Shown: one piece after another, positions 8,206 to 32,000 of the stretch
Layout of the letters: each line of letters starts with the position of its first letter
How positions within the stretch are numbered: the stretch's first letter is position 1
Source: an uncultured Eubacteriales bacterium
GTDB lineage: Bacteria; Bacillota; Clostridia; Christensenellales; Aristaeellaceae
Direction of reading: 5' to 3'
Length of the DNA stretch: 32,000 nucleotides
NCBI GenBank assembly: GCA_902787835.1
Contig: CADAHU010000003.1
Coordinates: 6,890-38,889 of the forward strand
Position numbers and translations under genes: made by a program
The notes under the pieces: generated by a model
Database searches by the model: none
Seen by the model: only the letters and a program-made list of their open reading frames with translations
Told to the model about the DNA's origin: nothing

Positions 8206-8391
8206 ACGGGGGCGTTCCTTCTTGGAGCCCAAGAAGGAACCGAAGAAGGCTGCGTTTGTCGCCGCTGATGCTGCGGGCTTTTCCGGCAACGGGAGGTTAC
8301 GGGGGCGTTCCTTCTTGGAGCCCAAGAAGGAACCGAAGAAGGCTGCGTTTGTCGCCGTTCCTGTTGCGGGCTTTTCCGCCAACTGGCTTTG
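8206..8391. repeat. tandem duplication (2 x 93 nt), each unit carrying a perfect 12-bp/3-nt-loop hairpin
   Basis: Units are 8206-8298 and 8299-8391. The first 59 nt are identical and the remaining 34 nt match at 24 of 34. Each unit contains gttccttcttgg-agc-ccaagaaggaac (8214-8240 and 8307-8333). Confidence 0.9.
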
Positions 8392-8478
8392 ACGCCTGCA
8401 ACCGTTCCCGGGCCCGTAGCGCCCGGAAAACCTGCCCTTGGGCCGGTTTTCAGAGGAGGGCGGGCCGGAAGGCCCCGG
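8391..8478. repeat. 88-nt GC-rich structured repeat core, copy A
   Basis: Its reverse complement matches 12573-12660 at 85 of 88 positions (aligned by hand in 10-mers). It contains three stem-loops: ccgggc/gcccgg (8408-8426), gaaaacc/ggttttc (8426-8451), and gggcc-GGAA-ggccc (8462-8475). Confidence 0.9.
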
Positions 8479-12572: not shown

Positions 12573-12740
12573 CCGGGGCCTTCCGGCCCGCCCTCCGCTG
12601 AAAACCGGCCCAAGGGCAGGTTTTCCGGGCGCTACGGGCCCGGGAACGTTTGCAGGCGTTAAAGCCTGTTGGTGGAAATCCAGCAGCATTTACGGCGACA
12701 AAGCAGGTTTTCTGCTTCTCTTTTGACTCAAAAGAGAAGC
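12573..12740. repeat. structured repeat, copy B (inverted relative to copy A): 88-nt core plus one hairpin module
   Basis: 12573-12660 matches the reverse complement of 8391-8478 at 85 of 88 positions. The flanks are colinear but diverged (aaagccNgttggNggaaa, acggcgacaaa). It ends in a perfect 12-bp/3-nt hairpin, gcttctcttttg-act-caaaagagaagc (12714-12740). That hairpin occupies the same position as the copy A hairpin but has a different stem sequence. Confidence 0.9.
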
Positions 12741-16712: not shown

Positions 16713-18521
16713 TCAGTCGTCGTTCATTTTTAGTACTTTCATGAAGGCCTCGCTGGGCACCTCCACGGTACCGAACTGGCGCATCTTCTTTTTGCCTTCC
16801 TTCTGCTTTTCCAGCAGCTTCTTTTTGCGGGTGATGTCGCCGCCGTAGCACTTGGCCAGCACGTCCTTGCGCACGGCCTTGACGGTTTCCCGGGCGATGA
16901 CCTTGCCGCCGATGGCCGCCTGGATGGGGATATCGAACTGCTGGCGCGGGATCACGTCCACCAGCTTTTCGGCGATGCTGCGCCCCCGGGCGTAGGCCCG
17001 GTCGCGGTGCACGATCATGGTAAAGGCGTCGCAGATATCGCCGTTCAGCAGAAAATCCAGCTTGACCAGATCGCTGGTCATATACCCCTTCAGCTCGTAA
17101 TCCATGCTGGCGTAGCCGCGGCTGCGGCTCTTCAGGCTGTCGAAGAAATCAAAGATCACCTCGTTCAGCGGGATATCGTAGGTCAATTTGACCCGGCCGC
17201 CCTCGTACTGCATATCCTTGAATACGCCGCGCTTGTCCTGGCACAGATCCATCAGCGTGCCCACGTATTCCTGGGGCGTGTAGATGGTCACCAGCACGAA
17301 GGGCTCGCGCATTTCGGCGATCTCGGTGATGGGCGGCAGGCTGGTGGGGTTATCGATCATCAGCGTATCGCCGTTGGTCTTGATCACCTCGTAAATCACG
17401 CTGGGCACGGTGGTCACCAGGTCCAGATCAAACTCCCGCTCCAGGCGCATCTGGATGATCTCCATATGCAGCAGGCCCAGGAAGCCGCAGCGGAAGCCGT
17501 AACCCAGGGCCACGCTGGTCTCGGGCTCGTAGCTGAGCGCCGCGTCGTTCATGCGCAGCTTTTCCAGGGCGTCCTTCAGGTTTTCGTAGTCCGCGCCGTC
17601 GGCGGGGTAGATACCGCAGTACACCATGGGCGTCACCTCGCGGTAGCCGGGCAGCGCCTCCGCAGCGGGGTTGGCGGCGTCGGTGATGGTATCGCCCACC
17701 CGGGTGTCCCGCAGGTCCTTGATGCTGGCGGCCACGTAGCCCACCTCGCCGGCCAGCAGCTCCTTCATAGGCTCGCAGCCGGGGGTGAGGCAGCCGGTTT
17801 CCACCACGTCGAATTCCGCCCCGGTCTGCATCATGCGCATGCGCATGCCGGGATAGATGCGGCCCTCCATCACGCGCACATAGCAGATGGCGCCGCGGTA
17901 ATTATCGTATTTGGCGTCGAACACCAGGGCCTTGAGGGGCTTGGTTTCGTCACCCTCCGGCGGGGGCATATGGGTGACCACGGCCTCCAGCACATCCTCG
18001 ATGCCGATGCCCTGCTTGGCGCTGGTCAGCGGCGCGATGGAGGCGTCCAGGCCGATCACATCCTCGATCTCCTGGCGCACCACTTCGGGCTGGGCGCTGG
18101 GCAGGTCGATCTTATTGATCACCGGGATGGTTTCCAGATCGTGCTCCAGGGCCATGTACACGTTGGCCAGGGTCTGGGCCTCGATGCCCTGAGTGGCGTC
18201 CACCACCAGCAGCGCGCCCTCGCAGGCCGCCAGTGCGCGGCTCACCTCGTAGGTAAAGTCCACGTGGCCGGGGGTGTCGATCAGGTTGAGCTCGTAGGTT
18301 TCGCCGTCTTTGGCCTTATAGCGCATGCGCACCGCCTTGCTCTTGATGGTGATGCCGCGCTCCCGCTCCAGATCCATGCTGTCCAGGATCTGCTCCACCA
18401 TCTCGCGCTTTTCAAACACGCCGGTGAGCTCCAGTATGCGGTCGGCCAGGGTGGATTTGCCGTGGTCGATGTGGGCGATGATGCAGAAATTGCGGATGTG
18501 GGAAAGCCTGTCGTTTGCCAT
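16713..18521 (-). CDS. lepA: translation elongation factor 4 (LepA)
   Basis: G1 [16 protein letters not shown]3 DTPGHVDF, G4 NKIDL, and a LepA-specific C-terminal domain. I chose the start [12 protein letters not shown] (ATG 18521-18519) because AAGGAGAA lies upstream of it. Confidence 0.95.
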
Positions 18522-19597
18522 TATTGATTCTCCTTGAACACCCAATTGCGCTGGATGCGGTAGCTGAGGAAGTAGAGCAGCGTATCACAGAGGATCTTGG
18601 CCAGCCATTTGGCCATGCCCAGGGCGGAGAGCGCCTTGATGCCCAGGGTGCTGAGGATGATGACCACCACGCAGGTGATCAGATACCGCGGGAAAGCGCC
18701 CCGCACGCCCTTTGCGCCGAACACCAGCCGCCGGTTGAGGGAAAAATTCAGAATGGAGCTGAACACGCGGGCGGAATAGTTGGAAACCGAGGTGGCCGTG
18801 CCGCCTGTCAGCTTCAGCGCCGGCATCAGCCAGCCGTCAAAGACGTTGAACAGCAGCTGATCCACCAGGAAGCAGAGCAGCGAGGAGCCCATGAACTTAA
18901 AGAAGCTGCCCAGCATCAGCTTGTAAATGCGCCAGCTGTCCTTCAGGGGATTAAAGTGGGAGCTCTTGTTCTCCTCCAGATAAATGGTCTCGATGGGGAT
19001 GATCTCAAAACGGATCTTGTGGCCGGCGCAGTAGATCAGCATGTTCATCTCGTACTCAAACCGGTCGCCGGTGATCGCCAGCAGATCGTCGAAGCACGCC
19101 CGGTTCACCGCCCGCAGCCCTGTCTGGGTATCGGGCAGCCAGTGGCCGTACAGGGCGGCAAAGATCACGCTGGTCACCCGGTTGCCGAAGCGGGAGCGGC
19201 CCGGGATGTTTTTGTTGCGGCGGGAAAAATCCCGGCTGCCCAGCAGCAGCTCCTTCTGATCGGCGCTGAGCCGGATCGCCAATTTGAGCGTATCGGCGGC
19301 GATGTGCTGGCCGTCGGCGTCGGCGGTGATCACGCCCGCAAAAGCCGTATGATCGCGGATATACTGCACGCCGGTGCGCAGGGCCTGACCCTTGCCGCGG
19401 TTGACCTCGTGGCGCAGCACATGGCAGCGCTCCCGGGCGGCGATGCTGTCAAATATGGGGTCGTATTCCGGCCCGCTGCCGTCGTTGACCACCAGGATCT
19501 GGCCAAAGCCCGCCGCCAGCAGGGAATCGACGTATTGGGGGAGCCGGTCATCGGGCTCCAGGGAGGGGATCAAAACGCAAAGCTCGTTTGCTTTCAT
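18521..19597 (-). CDS. GT2-family glycosyltransferase fused to a GtrA-like membrane domain (polyprenyl-phosphate sugar synthase-like)
   Basis: GT-A motifs [24 protein letters not shown]. The C-terminal about 120 aa has four TM helices and ends in the GtrA-like motif [10 protein letters not shown] chose the start at MKANEL (ATG 19597-19595) because AAAGGAG lies upstream. Its stop overlaps the lepA start as TAATG. Confidence 0.85.
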
Positions 19598-19649
19598 GCT
19601 GCGCTCCTTTGTTTGCATTGAAGCCGTGCCTGCGGGCATAGCTTTTATT

Positions 19650-19678
19650 ATTGTAACATTTTTCGGGCGCTTTCACAA
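19650..19678 (-). promoter_or_regulatory. sigma-A type promoter candidate for the GT2-lepA-prfA-topB string
   Basis: On the minus strand: TTGTGA (19678-19673), 17 nt, TACAAT (19655-19650), with TGT immediately 5' of the -10 box. Confidence 0.4.
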
Positions 19679-19695
19679 GAGCGGAGTTCATAAGG

Positions 19696-19724
19696 TGGAC
19701 AAAAGGGCGTCGGGAGGCTATAAT
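19696..19724 (+). promoter_or_regulatory. sigma-A type promoter candidate for the eight-gene MoxR/vWA/ABC operon
   Basis: TGGACA (19696-19701), 17 nt, TATAAT (19719-19724). It lies about 100 nt upstream of ATG 19824. Confidence 0.5.
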
Positions 19725-19731
19725 AGTCGGT

Positions 19732-19746
19732 GTCCGCGGGCCGCGG
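19732..19746. promoter_or_regulatory. 7-1-7 perfect palindrome at the predicted transcription start (possible operator)
   Basis: tccgcgg-g-ccgcgga begins 8 nt after the TATAAT box. A 1-nt centre rules out an RNA hairpin, so a DNA binding site is more likely. Confidence 0.3.
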
Positions 19747-19823
19747 ATATGAAAAAAGAATGGAACAAAACGCTGTTTATATTCGTCTGATATACGAAGA
19801 TCGAAAATTTGGGGAGGTTTTCC

Positions 19824-22328
19824 ATGGGCTTTCTGAATCGATACAAGCTGCTGGCCGCGTGCCTGCTGCTGGTCTGCGCGCTGTTTTTGGCCGCGCAGGC
19901 GGAGCCTGCCGTTACGGTGGCGGCGGAGATGGGCTACGAGCATACCATCACCTATCTTTCCGCCATGCCCCTCAGGGTGCGGCTCAAAAACGCCGGGACC
20001 GACGCCGAGCTGACGGTGGCGGTCAACCTGTACCGCAACAGGCAGGAATACGACCGCTATGAATATCCCGTCTTTCTGGCGGGCGGGGCGGAAACCGCGC
20101 TGACCCTGCCGGTGAGCATTACCTATAAGCAGCCCGCCTATACGGTGGAGGTGCTGGCCGACGGGCAGACGGTGGCCCAGGCCGACGTGCGCCCCCAGAA
20201 GGTCATGGCCCCCGATACGCTGCTGGTGGGCGTTCTGTCCGATCAGCCCCAGGCGCTGCGGGCGCTGAATATCAACGAGACCAACGACCCCATGATGCGC
20301 GGCGAAACCTGGCAGACGCTGGTGCTGGACGCGGCCACCTTCCCCGATCGGTATGAGCTGCTGCGGGCCTTCCGCATCCTGGCGGTGGATGGGTTTGATA
20401 TCGCCACGCTTTCCGAAAACCAGCATGAGGCCCTGAGCCGGTGGCTGCGGGAGGGCGGCATCGTGCTGGTGGGCGGCGGCGCGTCGGCCTCGGTGAGCGG
20501 CCGGGGCTTTATGGCCTATACCGGGGTCATGATGGGCATGCCCGCGCCCGCGTCCCAGGTGGAAAAGGCGCTGGAGAGCGCCCTGGCGGAGGGCTCCTTT
20601 GCCCTGAAATCCCAGCCTGGCCGGGGCGGCTCGGTGCTGGTATCTTCCCTTTCCGGCAGCCGGAACGCCGTGGCGATGCTTGGCGGCAAACCGCTGATCG
20701 ATCGCTGCCCGGTGGGCCAGGGCGTGGTGTATACCGCTGGCTTCTCCCTGGGCGACGCCGCGCTGAACGCCTGGAGCGGCATGAGCGGCTACTGGCAGCG
20801 CCTGCTGCTGACCTGCGACAGGACGCGGTATCAGGGCGTGATCACCGCGCTGCAGAATTATCAGGATACCTATAACAGCAACAGCTATGTGGATACCTGG
20901 CTGCTGCGCCAGATGCCCATGGAGAACCCGGACAGCGTATGGCTGATCGTGGGGCTGACGGCGGCCTTCCTGGTGCTGGGCGGCATCGGCGGCTATCTGC
21001 TGCTCCGCCGCTTCGATAAGCGGGAATGGCTGTGGCTGGCCGCGCCGGCGCTGTGCCTGCTCTGCGCCGTACTGACGCTGACGCTCAGCCGCGGCATGCA
21101 GCTGCGCAAGCCCGCGGCGGCGGCCTACGCGGTGCTTGCCGTGGGGACGGACGGCCAGACCAAAACCAACATCATGGCCGGCGTGGCCTCCTCGGAGCGC
21201 ACGCCCATGCGCATCTCCGGCGGGGCGGGTGAAACGCTGTCCCTGGGCTCCCTGGATTACGGCTATTATGAGGATGACGAGGAAGCCGAAAAGGCCGCGC
21301 CCAAGCTGCGCTATACCTATGCCTACGGCGAGCCCATGACCATCACCCTGCCCGCGGCGGCGGCCTGGGAGGTGCATACGCTGTTTGCGGAGCCCGCCCA
21401 GAGCGTTGCCTGTCCGGTTTCCGCCACCATCTGGTGGGAGCAGGACGGCCTGCACGGCGAGATCGTCAACGGCTCCGATCTGACGCTGGATGCGGGCTAT
21501 GTGTTTACCAACCAGGGCTTCTGCCCGGTGCCCGCGCTGCAGCCCGGGGCGCGCCATGCCTTCTCCATCCTGGAGAATCCGGAGCGCACCGCCACGGGGG
21601 ACAGCGTTACGGCCTATCCGGGGGAGATCGTGCCCGGCGGGTATGCCGAGACCTATTCCATCGTCTCCTCCGCCCTCTATCCCAACGGCTATGACGCCGC
21701 CGTCAGCGGTGAAATGGCCTTCAAGCGCAATATGATCGAAAGCTGCCAGGGCAAATGGAACCAGCGGGCGGCCTTCCATTACGTCGCCTTCAGCGATCAG
21801 GTGCCCAGGCCCCAGCTGCTGATCAACGGGGAAAACGTGGGGCGCATGGCGTACAATGCGGTGATCGATACCGAAATCGCTTATCAGGCCGTGGGCGCGG
21901 ATGGCCTGGTGCGACTGAACCGCGGCATGATCCCGGCCTATTCCGCGGAGCTGAACGGCCAGGGCAAGCCCGCCTCCATCAGCCAGTCGCTGCAGGATTA
22001 TACCTATTTTGCGCTGCGGGATGAGCCCGCGCTGTGCTTCGCCCTGGGAGAGTGCGCGGCCATCGATCTGGAAAGCCTGACCATCGATCAGGCGCAGTTC
22101 ACCTGCGAGAGCTATGGCGCCAAGCCCCGGCTGTACCTGTATAACGCCCCCGCCGGCAGCTGGCTGGAGATCGCGTACAGCGCCCTCCCCGCCGCCATCG
22201 ACGGCGATACGCTGCGAGCGTGCCTGGATGAGGACGGGCGGCTGTACCTGCGCCTGATGCCCGGCACGGGCGGCGCGAACAGCGAGATCTATAACCCCGC
22301 GCTGACGCTGGAAGGAAGGATGCTGTAA
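19824..22328 (+). CDS. large uncharacterised envelope protein (834 aa): signal peptide, N-lobe, TM hairpin, C-lobe
   Basis: ATG 19824 sits 6 nt after GGGGAGG (19811-19817). Signal-like N-terminus MGFLNRYKLLAACLLLVCALFLAAQA. Two central TM helices (VWLIVGLTAAFLVLGGIGGYLLL and WLWLAAPALCLLCAVLTLTL) flank a basic loop, RRFDKRE. The segment FRILAVDGFDIATLSENQHEALSRWLREGGIVLVGGG resembles non-catalytic GATase1-like modules of GldG/DUF4350-type ABC auxiliary proteins; that is an impression only. Confidence 0.75.
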   Translation: MGFLNRYKLLAACLLLVCALFLAAQAEPAVTVAAEMGYEHTITYLSAMPLRVRLKNAGTDAELTVAVNLYRNRQEYDRYEYPVFLAGGAETALTLPVSITYKQPAYTVEVLADGQTVAQADVRPQKVMAPDTLLVGVLSDQPQALRALNINETNDPMMRGETWQTLVLDAATFPDRYELLRAFRILAVDGFDIATLSENQHEALSRWLREGGIVLVGGGASASVSGRGFMAYTGVMMGMPAPASQVEKALESALAEGSFALKSQPGRGGSVLVSSLSGSRNAVAMLGGKPLIDRCPVGQGVVYTAGFSLGDAALNAWSGMSGYWQRLLLTCDRTRYQGVITALQNYQDTYNSNSYVDTWLLRQMPMENPDSVWLIVGLTAAFLVLGGIGGYLLLRRFDKREWLWLAAPALCLLCAVLTLTLSRGMQLRKPAAAAYAVLAVGTDGQTKTNIMAGVASSERTPMRISGGAGETLSLGSLDYGYYEDDEEAEKAAPKLRYTYAYGEPMTITLPAAAAWEVHTLFAEPAQSVACPVSATIWWEQDGLHGEIVNGSDLTLDAGYVFTNQGFCPVPALQPGARHAFSILENPERTATGDSVTAYPGEIVPGGYAETYSIVSSALYPNGYDAAVSGEMAFKRNMIESCQGKWNQRAAFHYVAFSDQVPRPQLLINGENVGRMAYNAVIDTEIAYQAVGADGLVRLNRGMIPAYSAELNGQGKPASISQSLQDYTYFALRDEPALCFALGECAAIDLESLTIDQAQFTCESYGAKPRLYLYNAPAGSWLEIAYSALPAAIDGDTLRACLDEDGRLYLRLMPGTGGANSEIYNPALTLEGRML

Positions 22329-23269
22329 TGCTGCAAATCAAGGAGCTGACCAAGCGCTACGGCGCGTTTACCGCCCTGGACCGGCTGAGCATGGAGATCA
22401 GCGACGGCGAGCTGCACGGCTTTGTGGGGCCCAACGGCGCGGGCAAAACCACCACCATGCGCATCCTGGCCACCCTGCTGCGCCCCACATCGGGCACCGT
22501 GGTGATCGATGGGGTGGATGTGCTTCAGAACCCCCGCCGGGTGCGGGAGCTGGTGGGCTATATGCCCGATTTCTTTGGCGTGTACGATCACCTGAAGGCC
22601 TGGGAATATTTGGATTTTTACGCCCGCTGCTACGGCTTTGGCCATGCGGACCGCATGCGCATGATCGATCAATTGCTGGAGCTGGTCAACCTGTCCGACC
22701 GGCGGGATACCTATGTGGATGTGCTGTCCCGTGGCATGAAGCAGCGGCTTTGCCTGGCCCACGCCCTGATCCACGATCCCAAGCTGCTGATCCTGGATGA
22801 GCCGGCCTCCGGCATGGACCCCCGGGCCCGGGCGGAGATGAAGGGCATCCTCAAGACGCTAAAGGACATGGGCAAGACCGTGCTGATCTCCTCCCATATC
22901 CTGCCCGAGCTTTCGGAGATGTGCGACAGCCTGACCATCATCGATCACGGCTCCCTGGTGTTCTCCGGTTCGGTGGAGGAGCTTTCCCGCCGCATGACCG
23001 GGCAGAGCGATATCCATCTGCAGCTGCTGCCGGGGGATGATTCGGCCGTCGAGGCCGCCGCCGCCCTGCTCAAGCAGTATCCCGGCGTCACCGGCATCAG
23101 CCGCGGCGATGAGGATAACACGCTGCTGGTGGCCTTCGGCGGCGATGAGGGCGGCATGGCCGATCTGCTGCGCGCCCTGCTGGAGGGGCATGTGCCGGTG
23201 TGCGGCTTCCACCGCCCGCCCATGAATCTGGAAAAGGTGTTTATGGAGGTGACCCGCGATGACGGTTAA
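22328..23269 (+). CDS. ABC transporter ATP-binding protein (ABC-2 / CcmA-NatA type)
   Basis: Walker A GPNGAGKTT, signature LSRGMKQRL, Walker B LLILDEPASGMD, H-loop ISSHIL. ATG overlaps the upstream TAA as TAATG (22326-22330). Confidence 0.92.
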   Translation: MLQIKELTKRYGAFTALDRLSMEISDGELHGFVGPNGAGKTTTMRILATLLRPTSGTVVIDGVDVLQNPRRVRELVGYMPDFFGVYDHLKAWEYLDFYARCYGFGHADRMRMIDQLLELVNLSDRRDTYVDVLSRGMKQRLCLAHALIHDPKLLILDEPASGMDPRARAEMKGILKTLKDMGKTVLISSHILPELSEMCDSLTIIDHGSLVFSGSVEELSRRMTGQSDIHLQLLPGDDSAVEAAAALLKQYPGVTGISRGDEDNTLLVAFGGDEGGMADLLRALLEGHVPVCGFHRPPMNLEKVFMEVTRDDG

Positions 23270-24185
23270 TCCCATCCTGGCGTTCTCTGCCCGGCGGCGC
23301 ATGCGCTCGGCGCGCACCGCGTGGCTGCTGACGCTCTACGGCCTGGCGGTGCTGATCTTTGGCCTGCTGGTGTCCTTTGGCAGCTTCCTCAAGCCCACCC
23401 TGTCCATCTATACCATGAGCCAGGGCCAGGAGGGCTACGCCTATATGCTGGCCTTCCAGTTTTTCCTGCTGCTGCTGGTTACCCCGGCCATGACCGCCGG
23501 GGCCATCTCCGGCGAGCGGGAGCGGCAGACGCTGGACCTGCTGCTGGTCACCCATACGGGCAGCCTGGGCATCGTGGTGGGCAAGCTGCTGGAGAGCCTG
23601 GGGCTCATGCTGCTGCTGGTGTTCTTTACCCTGCCCGCCATGTGCCTGGTGCTGATCACCGGCAGCATGACGCTGTCCCAGGTGCTGGTGGGGCTGCTTT
23701 TCCTGGGCGTCACCGCCTTCGCCATGCTCAGCGTGGGCATGCTGTGCTCCGCCCTGCTGCGGCGCACCGTGGCCGCCACCGTGGCGGCCTACCTGGCGGT
23801 GTTCGCCATCGGCCTGGTAACGCTGATCCCGCTGATCGGCGATCTGAGCAACGTGGTCACCGCCTATGACGCCATGTCCAGCAGCTATTACGGCGGCGTT
23901 CCCGCGGTGGATCCCGCCCAGGCGGCGGATCTGCATCTGATCAGCTTTGTGATCAATCCCGCGCTGGGGCTCATGTCGCTGATCGCCGCCCAGACCGGCC
24001 TTCTGCGCGGCACCATGGGCAATTACAGCTACGCCATCTATAACCTGTACGATTATATGGATTTCATGGGCATGGCCTGGGCGTCGATGGCCTTTATGGC
24101 CGGGGCCGGGCTGGTGCTGGATGTGCTGGCGGCCTGCTTTGTGCGGCCCCGCCGGGAGCGCGTCCGGAAAGGAAAAACGGCATGA
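23259..24185 (+). CDS. ABC-2 family transporter permease
   Basis: Six or seven hydrophobic segments. The N-terminus MTVNPILAFSARRRMRSARTAWLL... and the motif ISGERERQTLDLLLVT are typical of ABC-2 (NosY/GldF-like) permeases. It overlaps the ATPase gene by 11 nt. Confidence 0.85.
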   Translation: MTVNPILAFSARRRMRSARTAWLLTLYGLAVLIFGLLVSFGSFLKPTLSIYTMSQGQEGYAYMLAFQFFLLLLVTPAMTAGAISGERERQTLDLLLVTHTGSLGIVVGKLLESLGLMLLLVFFTLPAMCLVLITGSMTLSQVLVGLLFLGVTAFAMLSVGMLCSALLRRTVAATVAAYLAVFAIGLVTLIPLIGDLSNVVTAYDAMSSSYYGGVPAVDPAQAADLHLISFVINPALGLMSLIAAQTGLLRGTMGNYSYAIYNLYDYMDFMGMAWASMAFMAGAGLVLDVLAACFVRPRRERVRKGKTA

Positions 24186-25654
24186 AAAAAGCGCTGGGGC
24201 CGGCGCGCCGCCGTCTGCGCTTGCGGCGCGGCGTGATCGGCCTTTGCTGGGGATTGCTGGCGGGGCTGGCGCTGGCCGCGGCTGTGCTGACGGCCTCCTT
24301 CCTGACGCCGCTGCGCCAGCGGGGAGCGCTGCTGCTTTGCTGCGCCGCCGCGCCGCTGCTGGGCATGGCTGCGGGCTTCCTTTGGCCGGTTTCCCTGCTG
24401 GATGCCGCCCGGGCCGCCGATGGCTGCGGGCTGATGGCCCGGGCGCAGACCGCCCTGAGCCTGGGAGACCGGCAGGACGCGATGGCCGATCTGCAGCGGA
24501 AGGACGCCCTGCGGGCGTTGGCAGCGCTGGATGTGCGCCGCGCCATGCCCCTGCGGGCGGAAAAGCGGGCGCTGATCCCATCGGCTGCCTGCGCCGCGGC
24601 CTGCCTGGCGCTGCTGCTGATCCCCAATCCCCAGGATGAGGTATTGCGGACGCAGAACCGCTTCCGCCAGGCCATGGAGAAGCCCGCTCAGGCCATCGAG
24701 CAGGCGGCGGAGCAGATCGATGAGCAGGCGATGGACGCCGATACCGTGCAGGAGCTGCGCCGGCTGCTGGGCGATCTGGCCCGGGAGCTGCGGCAGGATC
24801 GGGACGCCCGGGAGGCGCTCACTGATATCAGCCAGGCCCAGCAGGCGCTGGAGCGCAGGCTGGGCGAAAGCCGCGCGGCGGCCTCGGAGGCCCTGGGGCA
24901 GGCCGGGCTGAACAGCCTGGCCCAGGCGCTGCAGAGCGGCGATGCTCAGACGCTGGAAAACGCGCTGGAGCAAATGACGGAGCAGGATGCCGATCAGATG
25001 ACTCAGGCGGCGGAGAACGCAGCAGCCGGGAACGCCGCCGCGGCCAACGCCCTGCAGGCGGCGGCCAACGCCCTGTCCCAGGGCAACAGCGCCCAGGCGG
25101 CCCAGGCTCTCTCCCAGCTTTCCCCGTCCAGCCTCTCCTCCGGAAAGGTAAGCGCCGCCCTGCAGGCCGCGCGCGCCATGGCGGGCGGACAGGGCCAAGG
25201 CCAGGGTCAGGGTCAAGGACAGGGCCAAGGTCAAGGACAAGGCCAGGGACAAGGTCAGGGCCAGGGAGCCGGGCAAGGCCAGGGTCAGGGCGCCGGGAGC
25301 GGCGCGGGCCAGGGCAGCACCAATCAGGAGAGCGCCGGCAGCGGCTCCCCGGGCAGCGGCGGCCCGGGCCGGGAGAAAGGCCGCTACAAATTGGGTCAAT
25401 ATGAAACGATCTACGATCCCACCCGCCTGGGCGATGGCGGCGAGGTCAGCCAGAGCACCGGCCAGGTGGACCCGGACGCCCAGCTCAGCGAGATGACGCT
25501 GGGCCCGGGCCTGGGCGATGCCTCCGGCGATGTGCCCTATGATCAGGTGGTGGCGGAGTATCAGGCCGCCGCCGTGCGCCAGGCCCAGGAGGCCGCCCTG
25601 CCGGATTACGCCCGGCAATGGGTCACCGATTATTTTACCGCGCTGACGGAGTAA
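24182..25654 (+). CDS. uncharacterised membrane protein (490 aa): three TM helices, an Ala/Gln-rich helical region, a (Gly-Gln)n repeat and a conserved-looking C-terminal domain
   Basis: ATGA overlap with the permease stop. Basic N-terminus (RRRLRLRR) followed by TM helices. An A/Q/L-rich region from about residue 150 to 330, then the GQ repeat. The C-terminus ends ...VPYDQVVAEYQAAAVRQAQEAALPDYARQWVTDYFTALTE. No family recognised. Confidence 0.75.
   Translation: MKKALGPARRRLRLRRGVIGLCWGLLAGLALAAAVLTASFLTPLRQRGALLLCCAAAPLLGMAAGFLWPVSLLDAARAADGCGLMARAQTALSLGDRQDAMADLQRKDALRALAALDVRRAMPLRAEKRALIPSAACAAACLALLLIPNPQDEVLRTQNRFRQAMEKPAQAIEQAAEQIDEQAMDADTVQELRRLLGDLARELRQDRDAREALTDISQAQQALERRLGESRAAASEALGQAGLNSLAQALQSGDAQTLENALEQMTEQDADQMTQAAENAAAGNAAAANALQAAANALSQGNSAQAAQALSQLSPSSLSSGKVSAALQAARAMAGGQGQGQGQGQGQGQGQGQGQGQGQGQGAGQGQGQGAGSGAGQGSTNQESAGSGSPGSGGPGREKGRYKLGQYETIYDPTRLGDGGEVSQSTGQVDPDAQLSEMTLGPGLGDASGDVPYDQVVAEYQAAAVRQAQEAALPDYARQWVTDYFTALTE
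25187..25318 (+). repeat. in-frame hexanucleotide-period repeat encoding (GQ)13-GA-(GQ)3-GA-GS-GA-GQ-GS
   Basis: 22 consecutive Gly-X codon pairs, read directly from the sequence. Gly codons alternate among gga/ggc/ggt/ggg and Gln codons between cag/caa, so the DNA repeat is imperfect while the peptide repeat is nearly perfect. Confidence 0.95.
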
Positions 25655-25667
25655 AGGAGACAAAACG

Positions 25668-26645
25668 ATGCCCACTGAACAGGAAATCCTGTCCTTCCGC
25701 GGACAGCTGGAGAATATCAAAACCGAGATCGCCAAGGAGATCGTGGGCCAGGAGGCCGTGGTGGAGGCCATGGTGCTGGCGCTGGTGGCGGGCGGCAACG
25801 TGCTGCTGGAGGGCGTGCCCGGCCTGGGCAAAACCCGTCTGGTGCGCACCCTCTCCCGGGTGCTGGATCTGCCCTTTTCCCGCATCCAGTTTACCCCCGA
25901 TCTGATGCCCGCCGATATTACCGGCACCAACATCATCGAAAAGACCGAGCGCGGCAACGAGTTCCGCTTCCAGCCCGGCCCGCTGTTTGCCTCCATCGTG
26001 CTGGCGGACGAGATCAACCGCGCCACCCCCAAAACCCAGAGCGCCCTGCTGGAGGCCATGCAGGAGCATGCCGTCACGGTGGCCGGCGTCAGCCGCCCCA
26101 TGACGGAGCCTTATTTTGTGCTGGCCACCCAGAACCCGGTGGAGCAGGAGGGCACCTACCCCCTGCCCGAGGCCCAGCTGGACCGCTTCCTCTTTAAGGT
26201 GCTGGTGCCCTTCCCCACGCTGGCGGAATTGGACGCCATCGTGAATTTGACCACCACCGGCGAGGAGCAGCAGGCCCAGAAGGCCGCCGACGGGGCCGAT
26301 ATCCTGCGCCTGCGCGCCATTGCCCGCCAGGTGCCTGTGGCCCAGGCGGTGCAGCAGTACGCCCTGCAATTGATCCTCAACACCCATCCGGAGATCGAAA
26401 CCAGCCCGGCGGTGAGCCGGCAGTACCTGCGCTTCGGGGCCAGCCCCCGCGCCGCCCAGGCCATCCTCAGCGCCGCCCGCGTCCGCGCCCTGGCCCAGGG
26501 GCGGTTCAACGTGGCCTTTGAGGATATCCAGGCCCTGGCCAAGCCCTGCCTGCGCCACCGCATCGCCCTGAACTTTGAGGGCATGGCCCAGGGGCGCACG
26601 CCGGATGATATCATTGACGAACTGCTGAAAGAGGGCAAGCACTGA
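25668..26645 (+). CDS. MoxR-family AAA+ ATPase
   Basis: Walker A LEGVPGLGKT, Walker B IVLADEINRATPKTQSALLEAM. The MoxR hallmark VLATQNPVEQEGTYPLPEAQLDRF is present. RBS AAGGAG at 25654-25659. Confidence 0.93.
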   Translation: MPTEQEILSFRGQLENIKTEIAKEIVGQEAVVEAMVLALVAGGNVLLEGVPGLGKTRLVRTLSRVLDLPFSRIQFTPDLMPADITGTNIIEKTERGNEFRFQPGPLFASIVLADEINRATPKTQSALLEAMQEHAVTVAGVSRPMTEPYFVLATQNPVEQEGTYPLPEAQLDRFLFKVLVPFPTLAELDAIVNLTTTGEEQQAQKAADGADILRLRAIARQVPVAQAVQQYALQLILNTHPEIETSPAVSRQYLRFGASPRAAQAILSAARVRALAQGRFNVAFEDIQALAKPCLRHRIALNFEGMAQGRTPDDIIDELLKEGKH

Positions 26646-27505
26646 TGCTCAGCGACGGTTTTCTGCACCGGCTGGACGCTCTGCGGCTGACGGCCCGGTC
26701 CCCGGCCCAGGGCGGCGCGGGGGGCCTCCGGCGCTCCAAGGCCCTGGGCACGTCGGTGGAGTTCTCGGATTTCCGGGAGTACGCCCCCGGCGATGATCTG
26801 CGCCGCCTGGACTGGAACGCCTACGCCCGGTTTGACCGGCTGTTCCTAAAGCTCTTTATGGAGGAGCAGGAGACCCAGGTGAACCTGCTGGTGGACGCCA
26901 GCGCCTCCATGGGAGAGCGGGATAAATGGCCCTTTGCCCGGGATCTGGCGGCGCTGCTGGCCTACCTGGCCCTGCGGGGCGGCGATCGGGTAACGATGTA
27001 CGCCCTGGGCGGCGGGGAGCGGCATTCCGCCAGCCTGTCCGGCCGGGCGGGATATATGCGGGCGGCGGAGTTCCTGGACGCACTGACGCCCGCCGGTGAA
27101 ACCCGGCTGTGCGCCGATATCGCCCGGCTGCCCCTGCGGCCCGGCCGGGGCATCAGCCTGCTGATCACCGATCTGATGAGCCCGGACGGGTATGAAAAGG
27201 CGCTGCAAAGCCTGCAGTACCGCAGGCAGGAGGCTGCGCTGCTTCACGTGCTCTCGCCCTGGGAGATGAACCCGGAGCTGCAGGGCATGGTGCGGCTGGT
27301 GGACAGCGAGACCGGCGAGGAGCGGGAGCTGTCCGTTACCGGCAGCCTGCTGGAAAGCTATCACAGGGCGCTAAGCGATCTGCTGCGGGGGGCGGAGCGC
27401 TTCTGCCATGGCCGTGGCATGCCCTATCTGCGGCTCACATCGGATATGGATCTGGAAAAAGAGGCCCTGCGGGCGCTGTCCGCCTCGGGCCTTGTGGAAG
27501 CATAA
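26645..27505 (+). CDS. DUF58-family protein (MoxR partner with a degenerate vWA-like fold)
   Basis: Hallmark FREYAPGDDLRRLDWNAYARFDRLFLKLFMEEQE, followed by LLVDASASMG. TGATG overlap with the MoxR stop (26643-26647). Confidence 0.88.
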   Translation: MLSDGFLHRLDALRLTARSPAQGGAGGLRRSKALGTSVEFSDFREYAPGDDLRRLDWNAYARFDRLFLKLFMEEQETQVNLLVDASASMGERDKWPFARDLAALLAYLALRGGDRVTMYALGGGERHSASLSGRAGYMRAAEFLDALTPAGETRLCADIARLPLRPGRGISLLITDLMSPDGYEKALQSLQYRRQEAALLHVLSPWEMNPELQGMVRLVDSETGEERELSVTGSLLESYHRALSDLLRGAERFCHGRGMPYLRLTSDMDLEKEALRALSASGLVEA

Positions 27506-27514
27506 GGAGAGCGT

Positions 27515-29272
27515 ATGCACTGGCTTCATCCGGCGGGGGCGTGGGCCCTGCTCAGCCTGGCGGCGATCGCCGCGCTGTACCTGCTCAGGCGGCGCAGCGA
27601 ATCGCATACCGTGCCCAGCCTGCTTTTATGGCAGCGGGCGGTCCAGGAGCAGCAGGCCATGCGGCCCTTCCAAAAGCTGAAAAAGAATATACTGCTGTTT
27701 TTGCAGCTGGCGCTGGCGGCGCTGCTGGCGGTATCGCTGATGCGGCCCGCGGTCAGCGGCGGCGTCCGGGGCGAAACGGTGTTTGTTTTTGATCTTTCCG
27801 CCAGCATGCAGACGGTGGAGGACGGCCAATCCCGGCTCCAGGAGGCCCAGCGCCGGGCCGATGCGCTGATCGACAGCATGGAACCGGGCGACCGGGTGAC
27901 CGTGCTGGCCGCCGGCGCGCAGGCGAATATCGCCCTGTCCCGCTCGGCGGATCTTTCCCGCGCCCGGGCGGTGATCGACGGCCTGAGGGCGGGCAACGGC
28001 GGGGCCGATCTGCCCGCGGCGGTCTCCCTGGCCCAGGCCATGGCCCGGGATATCGACGGGCTCAACATCCTGGTGTTCTCCGATACCTATGCCGGCGCGG
28101 ACGCCCAGGTGATCCGGGTGGGGCAGCCGGCGCAGAACCGCGCCCTGCTCTCCCTTTCGGTGGGCGAGGGCGGCCAGGCCTTCGCGCGCGTGGCCAATTA
28201 TGGGGACGCGGCTTCCGTGACCCTGGAATGCTATGCAGACGGCAATCTGTGCGATATGGCCGCGGTGGAGGCTGGGGCGGGGGAGACCGTTTCCGCCCTT
28301 CTGCAGGCGCCCGCCGGGGCGCGGACCGTGCAGGTGAAGATCGCCGGGGAGGATGCCCTGGCCGCCGACGACAGCCGCTGGTATGCCGCCCGCTCCGCCG
28401 CCTCCTACCGGGCGGTGCTCTGCGGGGATAACCTGTTCCTGGAAAAAGCGCTCTCCCTGCGCGCCGATCTGACGCTGCTGCGCGCTTCCGTGGAGGAGAT
28501 TTCTGATTTGACCGATATTGACCTGTTTATCTTTGACGGCGCGCTGCCCGAAACGCTGCCCGAAACGGGCATGCTGCTGTGCGTCGCGCCAACGGGCACC
28601 GTGCTGGGCGTTTCGCCCGGGGAGACAGCCTCCGCCTCCGGCGCGCTGCGGGCGGGAGCCGGCGATCTGGCCGGGCGGCTCACCGAAAACCTTTCGCTCA
28701 GCGATATCGCCCTGCGGCGCTGCACGCCCCTGGAGGGCGGTGAGCCTGTGCTGACCCTGGGCGGCAAAACACTGCTTGCGGCGGCGGAGGCCGATGGCCG
28801 CCGGGCCGCCGTGCTGGGCTTTGATCTGCACGACAGCAATCTGCCCCTGAAGGGCGATTTTCCCGTATTGATCCAGAACCTGCTTTCCTGGCTGCTGCCC
28901 GACGCCCGCAGCGCGCTGGCGGACGGCGTCTGCGGCCAGACCGTTGCGCTGCCCGCCGATGTCCGCGCCCAGCATGCCCGGGTGATCACGCCCTCGGGCC
29001 GGACGCTGCCGGCGGAGGGCGCGCTGGAGGATACCGGCGAGATGGGCGTTTATACCCTGGAATACGCCTATGCGGATGGCGCTGTGCGCAGCCTGCCCTT
29101 TGCAATGCACATGGATACCGATGAGAGCGACGTGCGCCAGGTGGGCCCGGCCACGGGAGATGTTTCCCTGGGCGGCACGGCCCCGGCGGGCATGGAGCTG
29201 ACGCACTGGGTATTGCTGGCGCTGCTTGCGCTGCTGCTGGTGGAATGGGGGGTGAGCCGCCGTGTCGGTTGA
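27515..29272 (+). CDS. BatA-like membrane-anchored von Willebrand factor A (vWA) protein (585 aa)
   Basis: N-terminal double-TM module (HPAGAWALLSLAAIAALYLLRRR...ILLFLQLALAALLAVSLMRP) like the Bat/aerotolerance N-domain. MIDAS DxSxS in VFVFDLSASM. C-terminal TM LTHWVLLALLALLLVEWGV. RBS AAGGAGA at 27504-27510. Confidence 0.85.
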   Translation: MHWLHPAGAWALLSLAAIAALYLLRRRSESHTVPSLLLWQRAVQEQQAMRPFQKLKKNILLFLQLALAALLAVSLMRPAVSGGVRGETVFVFDLSASMQTVEDGQSRLQEAQRRADALIDSMEPGDRVTVLAAGAQANIALSRSADLSRARAVIDGLRAGNGGADLPAAVSLAQAMARDIDGLNILVFSDTYAGADAQVIRVGQPAQNRALLSLSVGEGGQAFARVANYGDAASVTLECYADGNLCDMAAVEAGAGETVSALLQAPAGARTVQVKIAGEDALAADDSRWYAARSAASYRAVLCGDNLFLEKALSLRADLTLLRASVEEISDLTDIDLFIFDGALPETLPETGMLLCVAPTGTVLGVSPGETASASGALRAGAGDLAGRLTENLSLSDIALRRCTPLEGGEPVLTLGGKTLLAAAEADGRRAAVLGFDLHDSNLPLKGDFPVLIQNLLSWLLPDARSALADGVCGQTVALPADVRAQHARVITPSGRTLPAEGALEDTGEMGVYTLEYAYADGAVRSLPFAMHMDTDESDVRQVGPATGDVSLGGTAPAGMELTHWVLLALLALLLVEWGVSRRVG

Positions 29273-31856
29273 ATTCCTGCGCCCCTGGGCGCTGGCGCTG
29301 CTGCCGGCGTGCCTGGCGCTGGCGCTGTATATTGCCCATCGCAGCCGCGGTCCGCATCGGGTGGCGGCGGCCTCGCGCTGCCTGCTGATCCTGCTGTGCG
29401 TGCTGGCGCTGGCAGCGCCTTCCCTTTCGCTGCCCGGCGGCCGCGGCGCGGTGTGGATCCTGGCCGACGCCTCCGATTCCCTGCGCGCCATGCAGGGCCA
29501 GGTGACGGCCAGCGTGCAGTCCGCCCTCAATGGCAAGGATCAGAATACCGACGCCGGGGTCATCGCCTTTGGCGGCGACGCCATGGTGGAGGCTCCGCTG
29601 GGGGACAGCCCGGCCTTTTCCGGCGTGCGCACGGCGGTGGATCCCGGAGAATCCGATCTGAACGCCGCGCTGACGCTGGCCGGGGCGCTGCTTCCCTCCG
29701 ATGGCGGCGGCCGTATTGCCGTGATTTCGGACGGCCAGACCGGCGATGTATCGGCGGCGGCCAAAGCGCTGTCGGCCCGGGGTGTGCCGGTGGACGTGCT
29801 GCCCCTTTCGCCTGAGAGCGCGGCCGATGCCCAGATCTCGCAAATTACCCTGCCTGCCGCGGCCTACGCGGGCCAGGCGTTCTCTGTGACCGTGCAGGTG
29901 GATTCCACCCTGGATACCACTGCCACCCTGGTGCTCAGCCAGGATCGCCGTGCGGTGGATACCCGGCAGGTGACGCTGCGCAAGGGTGAAAATACCTTTG
30001 TTTTCCGGGATACAGCGGCGGTACCCGGGGTGATCACCTATGAGGCCCGGCTGATCGCCGAGGGCGATACCGTGAGTCGCAACGACAGCCTGGGGGCCTA
30101 TATCACCGTCAGCGGCGCGCCGCGCATTCTGCTGGCGGAGGGCAAGGCGGGCGAGGGCAGCGAGATGGCCGCCATGCTGACCGCCGCCGGGATGGACTGC
30201 GATACCGTGCAGCCCTCCGCCCTGCCCGCCGACGCCGAGGGGCGCAGCCTGGGCCGCGGGCTGACCGTCATTGGCGGCGACAGCAGCTATGCCCTGGGCG
30301 GTTACCGGGGCACCGATCTGGAGGAGATGCTGCCCGTTACCATCGACGTGCGCAGCAAGCTGGAGCTGCCCTCCCTGGCGCTGATGCTGGTCATCGATAA
30401 ATCGGGCAGCATGACCGAGGGCATGTTCGGCACCACCCGGCTGGAGCTGGCCAAGGAGGCCGCCATGCGCGCCTGCGAGGTGCTGACCGAAAACGACCAG
30501 GTGGGCGTGATCACCTTTGACGACGCCGCCAAATGGGTGGTGGGCCTGCAGAACGTGACCGATGTTGCCGCCATCCAAAGCCAGATCGGCACCATCCGTC
30601 CCGGCGGCGGCACAGCCTTTTATACCGCGCTGTACGAGTCCCTGGCGGCGCTCCGGGACAGCGATGCCGCCCAGAAGCACGTGATCTTCTTAACGGACGG
30701 CGAGCCCGGCGATTCGGGCTACGAAGGCCTGGTGGAGGAGATGGCGGCCAGCGGCATCACCCTGACCACCGTGGCGGTGGGCAGCGGCGCGGATCAGCGC
30801 CTGCTGCGGGGCCTGGCGGTGCTGGGCGGCGGCCGCGCCTATGCCGCCAACGAGTTTGACAACCTGCCCAAGATCTTTACAAAGGAAACCTATCTGGTTT
30901 CCGGCGCGTATGTGCAGAACCGGGCCTTTACGCCGGTGATCGTTCATGAATCGAGCCTGACCGATTTTTCCGGCTTCCCGCGGATGACCGGCTATCTGGC
31001 GGTCACAGAAAAGGACCTGTCCACGGTGGAACTGGTCAGCGATCGGGAGGATCCCCTCCTGGCCTGGTGGCAGTATGGCGCGGGCAAGGTGCTGTGCTTT
31101 ATGGGCGACAGCCGCGGCGCGTGGACGGCGGAGCTGCTGCAATGGAGCGACGCGGCGGCCTTTTATGGCGGCATGGCGGCCTTTGTGCTGCCCGCCGAGG
31201 AGCGGTCCGGTTCGGTCAGCGCTCAGCGGGAGGATGGCCGCATGCGGGTGACCTATACCGCACCGGAGGAAGCCTCCGGATTGGATACCTGGGTCACCGC
31301 TCTGCTGCCCGACGGCAGCCAGGAGCGCATCCAGCTGACCGAGACCGCCCAGGGCGTTTATACCGGCGCGCTGGCCGCCGATCAGGAGGGCGCGTACGCC
31401 CTGCGGGCGGAGCAGTTTGACGCCCAGGGTGATCTGCTGCGGGTCATGGAGGGCGGCGCGGTGGCCGGATATTCCCGGGAATACGATCTGCGCCAGACCG
31501 ACGGCGCAGGCACGCTGGAACGCCTGGCTGCCATGACCGGCGGCACGGTGTATACCGATCCCGCGCAGCTGCTGGCTGCCGCCGTGCCCGGCGCTTCCCG
31601 GCGGGTGGAGCTGACCCGGCCGCTGCTGCTGGCGCTGCTGGCGCTTTTGCTGCTGGATATCGCCATGCGCCGTCTGGGCTGGGACGCCTGGCTGGAAAAG
31701 AAGCTGCGCGCGCCCAAAGCGGCGCCCGCAAAGCCCCAGGCGCAGCCCGCGGCGGCTGTCAAGCCGGCCCGGGAGCAGCCGAAGCCCGCCGCGCCCGCGC
31801 CTGCCGATACCGCCCAGGCTTTGCTGGATCGCAAAAAGAACAAAAAGCTGCTGTGA
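29262..31856 (+). CDS. large membrane-anchored double-vWA protein with GATase1-like modules (864 aa)
   Basis: GTG start overlaps the upstream gene by 11 nt. BatA-like N-terminal TM pair (FLRPWALALLPACLALALYIAHR...). First MIDAS WILADASDS and second MIDAS LMLVIDKSGSM. PLLAWWQYGAGKVLCF is typical of the non-catalytic amidotransferase-like domain seen in Bat-type proteins. C-terminal TM (LLLALLALLLLDIAM) followed by a Pro/Ala/Lys-rich tail. Confidence 0.85.
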   Translation: MSVEFLRPWALALLPACLALALYIAHRSRGPHRVAAASRCLLILLCVLALAAPSLSLPGGRGAVWILADASDSLRAMQGQVTASVQSALNGKDQNTDAGVIAFGGDAMVEAPLGDSPAFSGVRTAVDPGESDLNAALTLAGALLPSDGGGRIAVISDGQTGDVSAAAKALSARGVPVDVLPLSPESAADAQISQITLPAAAYAGQAFSVTVQVDSTLDTTATLVLSQDRRAVDTRQVTLRKGENTFVFRDTAAVPGVITYEARLIAEGDTVSRNDSLGAYITVSGAPRILLAEGKAGEGSEMAAMLTAAGMDCDTVQPSALPADAEGRSLGRGLTVIGGDSSYALGGYRGTDLEEMLPVTIDVRSKLELPSLALMLVIDKSGSMTEGMFGTTRLELAKEAAMRACEVLTENDQVGVITFDDAAKWVVGLQNVTDVAAIQSQIGTIRPGGGTAFYTALYESLAALRDSDAAQKHVIFLTDGEPGDSGYEGLVEEMAASGITLTTVAVGSGADQRLLRGLAVLGGGRAYAANEFDNLPKIFTKETYLVSGAYVQNRAFTPVIVHESSLTDFSGFPRMTGYLAVTEKDLSTVELVSDREDPLLAWWQYGAGKVLCFMGDSRGAWTAELLQWSDAAAFYGGMAAFVLPAEERSGSVSAQREDGRMRVTYTAPEEASGLDTWVTALLPDGSQERIQLTETAQGVYTGALAADQEGAYALRAEQFDAQGDLLRVMEGGAVAGYSREYDLRQTDGAGTLERLAAMTGGTVYTDPAQLLAAAVPGASRRVELTRPLLLALLALLLLDIAMRRLGWDAWLEKKLRAPKAAPAKPQAQPAAAVKPAREQPKPAAPAPADTAQALLDRKKNKKLL

Positions 31857-31901
31857 GCGGCGCTGGATGCATAAGGATGCTGGAGCAATGGAGGAAACGC
31901 A

Positions 31902-32000
31902 ATGGAGCTTTTGCGGCTGGAGCACGCGCTGACGGTGTGCAAGGTGGCGGACGCCGGAGAGATCGATCTTGCCAGGCCGTTCTATTTTATCGGCAGGACG
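31902..32000 (+). CDS. ACT-domain protein (ACT_7-like), N-terminal fragment running off the window
   Basis: ATG 31902 sits 7 nt after GGAGG (31890-31894). MELLRLEHALTVCKVADAGEIDLARPFYFIGRT matches the usual start of small ACT_7 proteins (L..L...L.VC.L......D......FF.I.RT). Only 33 codons are visible. Confidence 0.5.
   Translation, partial: MELLRLEHALTVCKVADAGEIDLARPFYFIGRT

Follow-up and report, generated by a model that had tools for sequence, protein, structure and literature searches.

An eight-gene cassette of Clostridia in which a Bat-like MoxR/DUF58/vWA module is joined to an ABC-2 transporter

We analysed a 32,000-nt stretch of DNA from an uncultured Eubacteriales bacterium (the window hereafter; GC content of ~60-70%) and found on its + strand a cassette of eight genes, g1 to g8, in which an ATP-binding cassette (ABC) transporter of the ABC-2 type is joined to a MoxR/DUF58/von Willebrand factor A (vWA) module resembling the Bacteroides aerotolerance (Bat) operons. 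The cassette is a chromosomal unit of eight genes that is inherited as a block and not a chance adjacency. We assign a probability of roughly 0.55 to the reading that its products together make up a single envelope assembly, anchored in the membrane and powered by two different ATPases of the cytoplasm. The eight open reading frames (ORFs) occupy positions 19824-31856 and have a coding-type GC content at third codon positions (GC3 of 0.83-0.88). The features of the operon are as follows:

19696..19724, + strand: promoter-like site of the sigma-70 type (TGGACA-17-TATAAT, 11/12 positions), ~100 nt upstream of g1
19824..22328, + strand: g1, 834 aa; putative GldG-like accessory of the ABC module
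22328..23269, + strand: g2, 313 aa; ABC ATPase of the DrrA/GldA-like branch
23259..24185, + strand: g3, 308 aa; ABC-2 permease
24182..25654, + strand: g4, 490 aa; helical membrane protein with a Gly/Gln repeat
25668..26645, + strand: g5, 325 aa; MoxR-type AAA+ ATPase
26645..27505, + strand: g6, 286 aa; DUF58 protein with a vWA-like fold
27515..29272, + strand: g7, 585 aa; BatA and vWA protein
29262..31856, + strand: g8, 864 aa; double-vWA protein with a GATase1_like domain
30238..30242, + strand: in-frame 87-bp deletion in g8, located by blastn and by comparison of the translation with contigs L001 and L002

The conservation of this block carries the argument. The diverse alignment of g1 had no searchable conserved stretch, and the alignment of g4 served as the seed of a census in which species-representative genomes were scanned with the g4 motif YExIYDPTR. 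The scan returned 68 loci, and tblastn with the eight window proteins revealed that the order and strand of g1 to g8 were kept in all of them (68/68) as far as the contig reached. These loci belong to Candidatus Limiplasma, Avichristensenella and Faecivicinus, to metagenome-assembled genomes (MAGs) labelled Oscillospiraceae, to a Mahella MAG, to isolates or cultured strains including Caldicoprobacter oshimai DSM 21659 and Bacillota bacterium Meth-B3, and in one case to a Chloroflexota MAG; the cassette is common in gut and rumen Christensenellales-type bacteria. Nine further contigs, reached through homologues of g1 and g4, showed the identical order down to ~21% identity in g1, and the co-occurrence of the ABC half and the MoxR half as one block, already suspected in the initial annotation of this DNA, was thus found in the 68 scan loci and in the nine contigs alike. 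A word search with g1 gave 65 homologues from uncultured Clostridia. Four contigs with g1 homologues at 33-41% identity had the same order and unrelated flanks, three contigs looked up through g4 homologues had the same gene order, and Proteiniborus sp. MB09-C3 and one high-GC metagenome contig carried all eight genes in order at ~21-25% g1 identity. The g8 gene was not called on one of the contigs looked up through g1 (L008).

The finer structure of the block is also kept. The genes overlapped at the g1/g2, g2/g3 and g7/g8 junctions in 75-98% of the loci, and the g4/g5 junction, where the two halves meet, had a median gap of 17 nt and was no longer than 30 nt in 85% of them. The identities of the two halves co-vary (Spearman 0.73, 54 complete loci). 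All four DxSxS motifs of the metal ion-dependent adhesion site (MIDAS) and both sets of ATPase motifs are at or near 100% conservation (89-100% per position). The flanks of the cassette are unrelated between lineages, and none of its neighbours in the window (LepA, GT2-GtrA, ACT and His_Phos_1) was kept beside it in the loci of other species.

In the window itself, the ORFs and the match to the promoter consensus bear out the claim of the initial annotation that eight same-strand genes follow one promoter-like site, and the ORF coordinates agree with all seven of the junctions it had listed. The ATG of g1 at 19824 is preceded by a ribosome-binding site (RBS), GGGGAGG, and gene callers also started g1 at this position on identical contigs. 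Consecutive genes overlap by 1 nt at g1/g2 (TAATG) and g5/g6 (TGATG), by 4 nt at g3/g4 (ATGA) and by 11 nt at g2/g3 and g7/g8, and they are separated by 13 nt at g4/g5 and by 9 nt at g6/g7. A consensus scan for terminators on both strands of 19000-32000 gave 15 weak matches (6.4 expected), none of them with a real T-run. It is plausible that the operon contains no terminator, a claim that a consensus scan tests weakly. No Rfam family indicative of a leader RNA or riboswitch matched anywhere in the window, and no tRNA was found in it.

The ABC half has the two parts expected of an ABC-2 exporter, an ATPase with intact motifs (g2) and an ABC-2 permease (g3). g2 matched ABC_tran (PF00005, 1e-30), and its Walker A, Walker B and signature motifs are conserved at 89-100% per position among 56 sequences. 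It scored 248.2 bits against TIGR01188 (DrrA subfamily), which is below the cut-off, and 217.2 bits against TIGR03522, the GldA equivalog, whose cut-off of 402.6 was not reached. g3 has 6-7 hydrophobic segments and matched ABC2_membrane_2 (PF12679) with 28.9 bits, just over the cut-off of 27.2, and its 22.6 bits against TIGR03518, the GldF equivalog, did not reach the cut-off of 288.5. A sequence search found no relative of g3 with a solved structure.

The third member of this half, g1, consists of a signal peptide, a CARDB-like immunoglobulin (Ig) domain (~30-128), a GATase1-like alpha/beta domain (~132-305) and a helical stalk, after which come a transmembrane (TM) hairpin (373-423) and a beta-rich C-lobe (431-834). 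The hairpin has a conserved cytoplasmic turn, Y..LKR.DKRE..W...P, in which Y391, D398, R400, W404 and P408 rank with the best-conserved residues across the superfamily. In the AlphaFold2 (AF2) model of g1 (pLDDT 85), the alpha/beta domain was matched by Foldseek to 3soz (STM1381), a GATase1-like protein (TMt 0.54), which we take to be a solved representative of the DUF1355/GATase1_like family. The same structure was the top match, at a non-significant level, of a sequence-profile search with g1. Relatives of g1 gave sub-threshold matches to DUF7408, DUF4350, ThuA, ABC_transp_aux (GldG), IFT52_GIFT and CARDB. No Pfam family was found for g1, and PF09822 (ABC_transp_aux, GldG) gave no match with g1 of the window and matched 1 of 28 relatives at E 0.043. 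Whole-chain Foldseek matches of g1 to transglutaminase 3 and to glycosidases were rejected, as their root mean square deviation exceeded 30 Å and they covered beta-sandwich repeats only. Judging from the model, we read g1 as a putative GldG-like accessory with a non-catalytic GATase1-like ectodomain, by fold and not by family membership.

The family of g1 reaches well beyond the cassette. The initial annotation had described g1 and g4 as orphans; both lack a Pfam family, yet a profile search with g1 retrieved 8,925 representative clusters at E <= 1e-3 (1,791 at E <= 1e-30), and at least 412 homologous clusters were found for g4. Among the best 150 matches of the g1 family, most are full-length proteins of ~800 aa. 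On two contigs (L084, 4165-7741, and L085, 10001-13430), distant proteins of the g1 family (P0358 and P0365) adjoin only an ABC ATPase that is ~46% identical to g2, with no ABC-2 permease or MoxR half within 10 kb. The ATPase may have there, as its sole nearby membrane partner, a protein with a 2-TM hairpin and large ectodomains. Because these distant relatives adjoin only the ATPase, the pair of a g1-like protein and an ATPase looks like the evolutionary core of the system. We infer that the turn of the g1 hairpin docks the ABC ATPase.

The gene that bridges the two halves, g4, encodes a protein that appears all-helical in its alignment, its hydrophobic segments and its AF2 model. A basic N-terminus, a TM hairpin and a small conserved domain (WPV..AAR.AD..GL.ER.QTA) are followed by a third TM segment with the sequence IPNPQ after it. 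Next comes an extended helical stretch rich in Ala and Gln, then a Gly/Gln repeat (338-450) that is disordered, and the protein ends in a conserved helical hairpin (YE.IYDPTRLG ... LP.Y...WV..YF.AL). No Pfam family was found for g4, and comparison of its AF2 model with the PDB gave no structural analogue (best E of 0.66). The idea that g4 might be a DUF4175-type protein (PF13779) was abandoned when a search with 20 relatives and two distant ones gave no match at E up to 1, and a match to TrAA12 was set aside as lying below the cut-off and within the Ala/Gln/Gly low-complexity region. In every locus inspected, g4 was seen only within the cassette. A 2.2-kb contig (L005) with an identical MoxR protein has a called 315-aa minus-strand gene (2-946) at the place expected for g4, which is probably a strand miscall due to the odd composition of this gene. 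In the window, a long ORF runs antisense at 24053-26101.

The MoxR half begins with g5, which matched AAA_3 (2.8e-62, 208.8 bits) and AAA_lid_2, has 2R44 as its nearest solved structure (E of 1.5e-75) and keeps Walker A and B at 100% conservation. g6 is a DUF58 protein (1.1e-32) with an intact MIDAS DxSxS motif, whose D/S/S positions are conserved at 98-100%; it has no hydrophobic or TM segment and is predicted to be cytoplasmic. In g7, an N-terminal double TM of the BatA type is followed by a vWA domain, a further domain and a C-terminal TM anchor; the matches are to BatA (PF07584, 8.9e-12, 45.7 bits with a cut-off of 25.9) and VWA_2 (1.7e-13), and the MIDAS positions are conserved at 96-100%. 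g8 starts with a double TM, a weak vWA domain, a GATase1_like domain and a second, strong vWA domain, and it ends with further domains, a TM segment and a Lys/Pro/Ala-rich cytoplasmic tail. Two separate segments of g8 were aligned to g7 by hhalign with probabilities of 98.5% and 97.5%, and a DNA repeat (D2) ties the C-terminal anchors of the two. By these sequence comparisons, g8 is an internal duplication of a g7-like module, and the two are paralogous BatA-type proteins. The earlier domain calls for the eight genes were mostly upheld by the Pfam/NCBIfam matches. No TPR, BatD-type, nuclease, protease or effector domain was found in the eight proteins with Pfam/NCBIfam, and no TPR or BatD gene in the cassette at the other loci examined. 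Pfam and PADLOC here agree with the initial annotation, which had noted neither a TPR BatC/BatE-like gene nor an effector domain.

The g8 gene of the window is shortened. In L001 and L002, two contigs that are 99.9% identical to the window, g8 encodes 893 aa and includes 29 residues, YMAYDAAVLVNVDYDAADENQWQALRTAV, that are missing here (the deleted stretch is L001 14575-14661). Through this deletion, which could reflect strain variation, a defective allele or an error of assembly, the GATase1-like domain loses a core strand and a helix.

The topology of the membrane proteins bears on how the two halves could work together. Judged by its hydrophobic segments and the positive-inside rule, g1 would have both lobes outside the membrane, as g4 would its long helical part, and in g7 and g8 all that is enclosed by the N-terminal double TM and the C-terminal anchor would likewise be external. 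This prediction puts the vWA domains of the latter two on the extracytoplasmic side, in agreement with the BatA-type protein BB0173 of Borrelia, whose vWA domain was experimentally located in the periplasm (PMC5700661). The cytoplasm would contain only the two ATPases, the DUF58 protein, the small conserved domain of g4 and, from g1, g7 and g8, short conserved loops, together with the Lys-rich tail at the end of g8. With the vWA domains in this predicted position, the cytoplasmic MoxR protein cannot touch the MIDAS sites of g7 and g8 directly, and the earlier proposal of a cytoplasmic AAA+ protein acting on membrane-tethered MIDAS proteins would need amending accordingly. The DUF58 protein (g6) and the conserved cytoplasmic loops are likelier contact points for MoxR.

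Within the general picture of one envelope assembly, we propose a working model in whose details we have lower confidence. In this model, g1, g4, g7 and g8 would each be fixed in the cytoplasmic membrane by TM anchors whose cytoplasmic loops are short and conserved, and they would together expose, on its outer side, Ig-like and GATase1-like domains as well as three vWA domains with MIDAS sites. The g2/g3 transporter would work with g1 as its GldG-like accessory, either exporting an envelope component or passing an ATP-driven movement to g1. From the cytoplasm, MoxR (g5) and its soluble DUF58 adaptor (g6) would assemble or remodel a complex of g7, g8 and g4. The output is likely to be the assembly, anchoring or remodelling of a cell-surface structure and not a cytoplasmic or defence function. 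In a more specific and doubtful version, the cassette would encode a two-motor envelope machine of Clostridia and some Chloroflexota, in which the ABC ATPase acts through the g1 hairpin in a mechanotransmission-like manner and, jointly with MoxR/DUF58, builds or operates a scaffold of vWA and GATase1-like domains.

Several points weigh against the single-assembly reading. The eight members are characterised here by sequence analysis and, for g1 and g4, by predicted structures, and contact between the two halves, their stoichiometric production and a single physical machine are properties that we infer. None of the eight genes encodes a substrate, cargo or surface structure. With a single g4 motif as the seed of the genome scan, the perfect synteny is conditional on the presence of g4. 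The fold assignment of g1 is based on one Foldseek domain match and on sub-threshold hidden Markov model matches. Comparison of the alpha/beta domain of g1 with g7 or g8 by hhalign gave a probability below 8%, and given this non-significant result, we claim no common ancestry for the GATase1-like domains of the cassette (g1 vs. g7/g8). A mutant of Leptospira biflexa from which all bat genes were deleted had no phenotype (PMC3557215), indicating that a strong envelope role is not required of such genes.

The full-text literature that we searched contained no description of a MoxR/DUF58/vWA module joined to an ABC-2 transporter, nor any system of this composition, which is in line with the initial annotation, where none could be named. 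The fixed combination of eight genes, the architecture of g1 and the family of g4 appear to be undescribed, and each part is otherwise of a known kind. A MoxR AAA+ protein paired with a vWA-fold adaptor is also found in MoxR1-Rv1480-Rv1481 of Mycobacterium, RavA-ViaA, NorQ-NorD and CbbQ-CbbO. Such MoxR-vWA chaperone pairs are expected to mature or assemble a partner complex. They have an identified client (RipA, respiratory complexes, NOR and Rubisco), whereas the cassette encodes none. The operon of Mycobacterium is treated in PMC12067865.

The ABC half is most similar to the gliding-motility transporter GldA/GldF/GldG of Bacteroidetes and to the wider family of ABC-2 transporters with a GldG-type auxiliary protein, which likewise combine an ABC-2 ATPase, a permease and a large extracytoplasmic accessory with a GATase1-like/GIFT fold. 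The models of GldA and GldF were among the best NCBIfam matches of g2 and g3, yet the scores were far under the equivalog cut-offs. In contrast to GldG, g1 has a signal peptide, Ig-like and GATase1-like domains, a central TM hairpin and a beta-rich lobe, and in contrast to the GldAFG system, the cassette has no gliding or type IX secretion context and joins its transporter to a MoxR module. A second counterpart, and the closest description in the literature searched, is the archaeal arCOG01314 (DUF4350) neighbourhood, predicted to encode a secretion or membrane-remodelling complex (Makarova, Galperin and Koonin 2015, PMC5898192). Its operon brings together an ATPase of the MoxR/GvpN type, a vWA protein of the DUF58 type, Ig-like membrane proteins and a protein whose GldG-like ectodomain has a flavodoxin fold (PMC5898192). 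Unlike the cassette, it contains neither an ABC transporter nor BatA-type or g4-like proteins, and the DUF4350 scores in the relatives of g1 are sub-threshold.

These likenesses raise a tentative and rather unlikely alternative, in which the cassette would be dedicated, in monoderms, to secretion or to the assembly of surface proteins. As a bacterial counterpart of the archaeal DUF4350-MoxR-vWA complex, it would export or anchor cargo encoded elsewhere in the genome. The parts, with g1 as a putative GldG-like ectodomain protein, are of the same kinds as in the archaeal neighbourhood, GldAFG is needed for the gliding of Bacteroidetes, whose apparatus is now grouped with type IX secretion (PMC5898192), and the large ectodomains with three predicted extracytoplasmic MIDAS sites would suit such a role. 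However, no cargo gene is conserved beside the cassette, the flanks differing in every lineage, no channel former is recognisable beyond the small ABC-2 permease, and the archaeal counterpart is itself a prediction.

The Bat operons are among the closest known systems to the cassette: batA-E of B. fragilis with the upstream MoxR and DUF58 genes, bb0170-bb0176 of Borrelia, the bat genes of Leptospira and RL3499-RL3502 of Rhizobium. They share with it, in the same order, MoxR AAA_3, DUF58, a BatA protein with a double TM and a MIDAS vWA domain, and a second vWA membrane protein. The cassette differs from them in lacking the TPR proteins BatC/BatE as well as BatD, in adding the ABC-2 pair, the 834-aa g1 and the 490-aa g4, and in having as its second vWA protein (g8) a duplicated module with a GATase1_like domain. 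The hosts also differ, as the cassette is found in Clostridia, which are typically monoderm, whereas the Bat hosts are diderm. The operon of Rhizobium is reported to affect morphology and envelope integrity.

An aerotolerance role was reportedly the original hypothesis for the Bat operon of Bacteroides, put forward by Tang et al. in 1999. Applied to the cassette, it would have the ABC-2 transporter export, to the outer side of the membrane, a small reductant or protectant that the Bat-like proteins use or organise, shielding strict anaerobes from oxygen. We consider a redox system of this kind unlikely. It would fit the presence of the BatA N-terminal domain, MoxR and DUF58, the strictly anaerobic hosts of the gut, rumen and digester, and the response of the bat-like genes of Borrelia to oxygen (PMC5700661), and the exporter would supply an element absent from the original Bat hypothesis. 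Nevertheless, the full bat deletion in Leptospira had no oxidative-stress phenotype (PMC3557215), no thioredoxin, cytochrome or Fe-S domain was found in any of the eight proteins with Pfam/NCBIfam, and BatC/BatE (TPR) and BatD are absent.

It is very improbable that an ABC-2 efflux pump with its accessory and a Bat-like operon are two independent systems that are co-transcribed and do not cooperate. MoxR-DUF58-vWA operons are described in the Bat literature as generally having no ABC genes, some pairs of a g1-like protein and an ATPase occur with no MoxR half, and g4/g5 is the loosest of the seven junctions. Against independence stand the order kept at the 68 loci and nine contigs despite wholly reshuffled flanks, the co-varying identities of the halves and the restriction of g4, which bridges them, to the cassette context at the inspected loci. 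Least probable of all, to the point of being nearly negligible, is an anti-phage or conflict system: MoxR-vWA modules do occur in conflict systems, and g5 also scores on PF20030 (bpMoxR), but with 49.8 bits this is far below its 208.8 bits on AAA_3, the eight proteins include no effector, nuclease or protease domain (Pfam) and no beta-propeller such as that of the MoxR-vWA-beta-propeller ternary conflict system, PADLOC gave generic P-loop matches and none specific to a system, tblastn found no plasmid or phage copy, and the cassette has housekeeping neighbours and is stable and syntenic across species, whereas defence islands are typically patchy.

Downstream of the cassette, an ACT-domain gene on the same strand starts at 31902, 46 nt past the stop of g8, with its own RBS and no visible terminator between. 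The region continues in L001 (16322-17469), where a gene for a His_Phos_1 phosphatase follows, and in this genome the two genes may share a transcript with the cassette. Neither was conserved beside it in the 68 other loci. Upstream, divergent from the promoter region of the operon, lies a GT2-GtrA fusion gene of the polyprenyl-phosphate glycosyltransferase type (18521-19639, - strand), which adjoins the cassette in L001 and L002 and not in other species. ACT, His_Phos_1 and GT2-GtrA were rejected as extra members, as they are not conserved beside the cassette.

Farther upstream, two inverted-repeat arms of 106 nt each (8373-8478 and 12573-12678, 95% complementary) surround a 4.1-kb segment in which a radical-SAM gene lies together with genes for two pectin-related glycoside hydrolases (GH28 and GH88). 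The element, which has no Rfam match, occurs a third time past the end of the window, downstream of the operon (L001 17552-17865). The element could be a dispersed intergenic repeat or mark the ends of a mobile or invertible segment. Abutting its left arm, in the intergenic region after an acyl-ACP thioesterase gene, is a tandem direct repeat (8206-8386) with an 88-nt unit, a spacing of 93 nt and two copies that are 93% identical, each with an internal palindrome, GGTTCCTTCTTGG...CCAAGAAGGAACC.

Among bacterial gene clusters that lack a known molecular function, the MoxR-DUF58-vWA (Bat-like) operons rank with the most widespread. In the cassette, the fixed partners of this module are an ABC-2 transporter and two large families without annotation, one of them with thousands of members, and they provide a testable partner set and topology for Bat/MoxR systems. 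A GATase1-like ectodomain theme is common to Bat systems, GldAFG-type ABC systems and the predicted archaeal DUF4350-MoxR complex. Cultured hosts (Caldicoprobacter oshimai DSM 21659, Proteiniborus sp. MB09-C3 and Bacillota bacterium Meth-B3) allow experiments. If the two-motor machine proved true, it would represent a new secretion or surface-assembly system and would give a first molecular handle on Bat-type MoxR-vWA operons.

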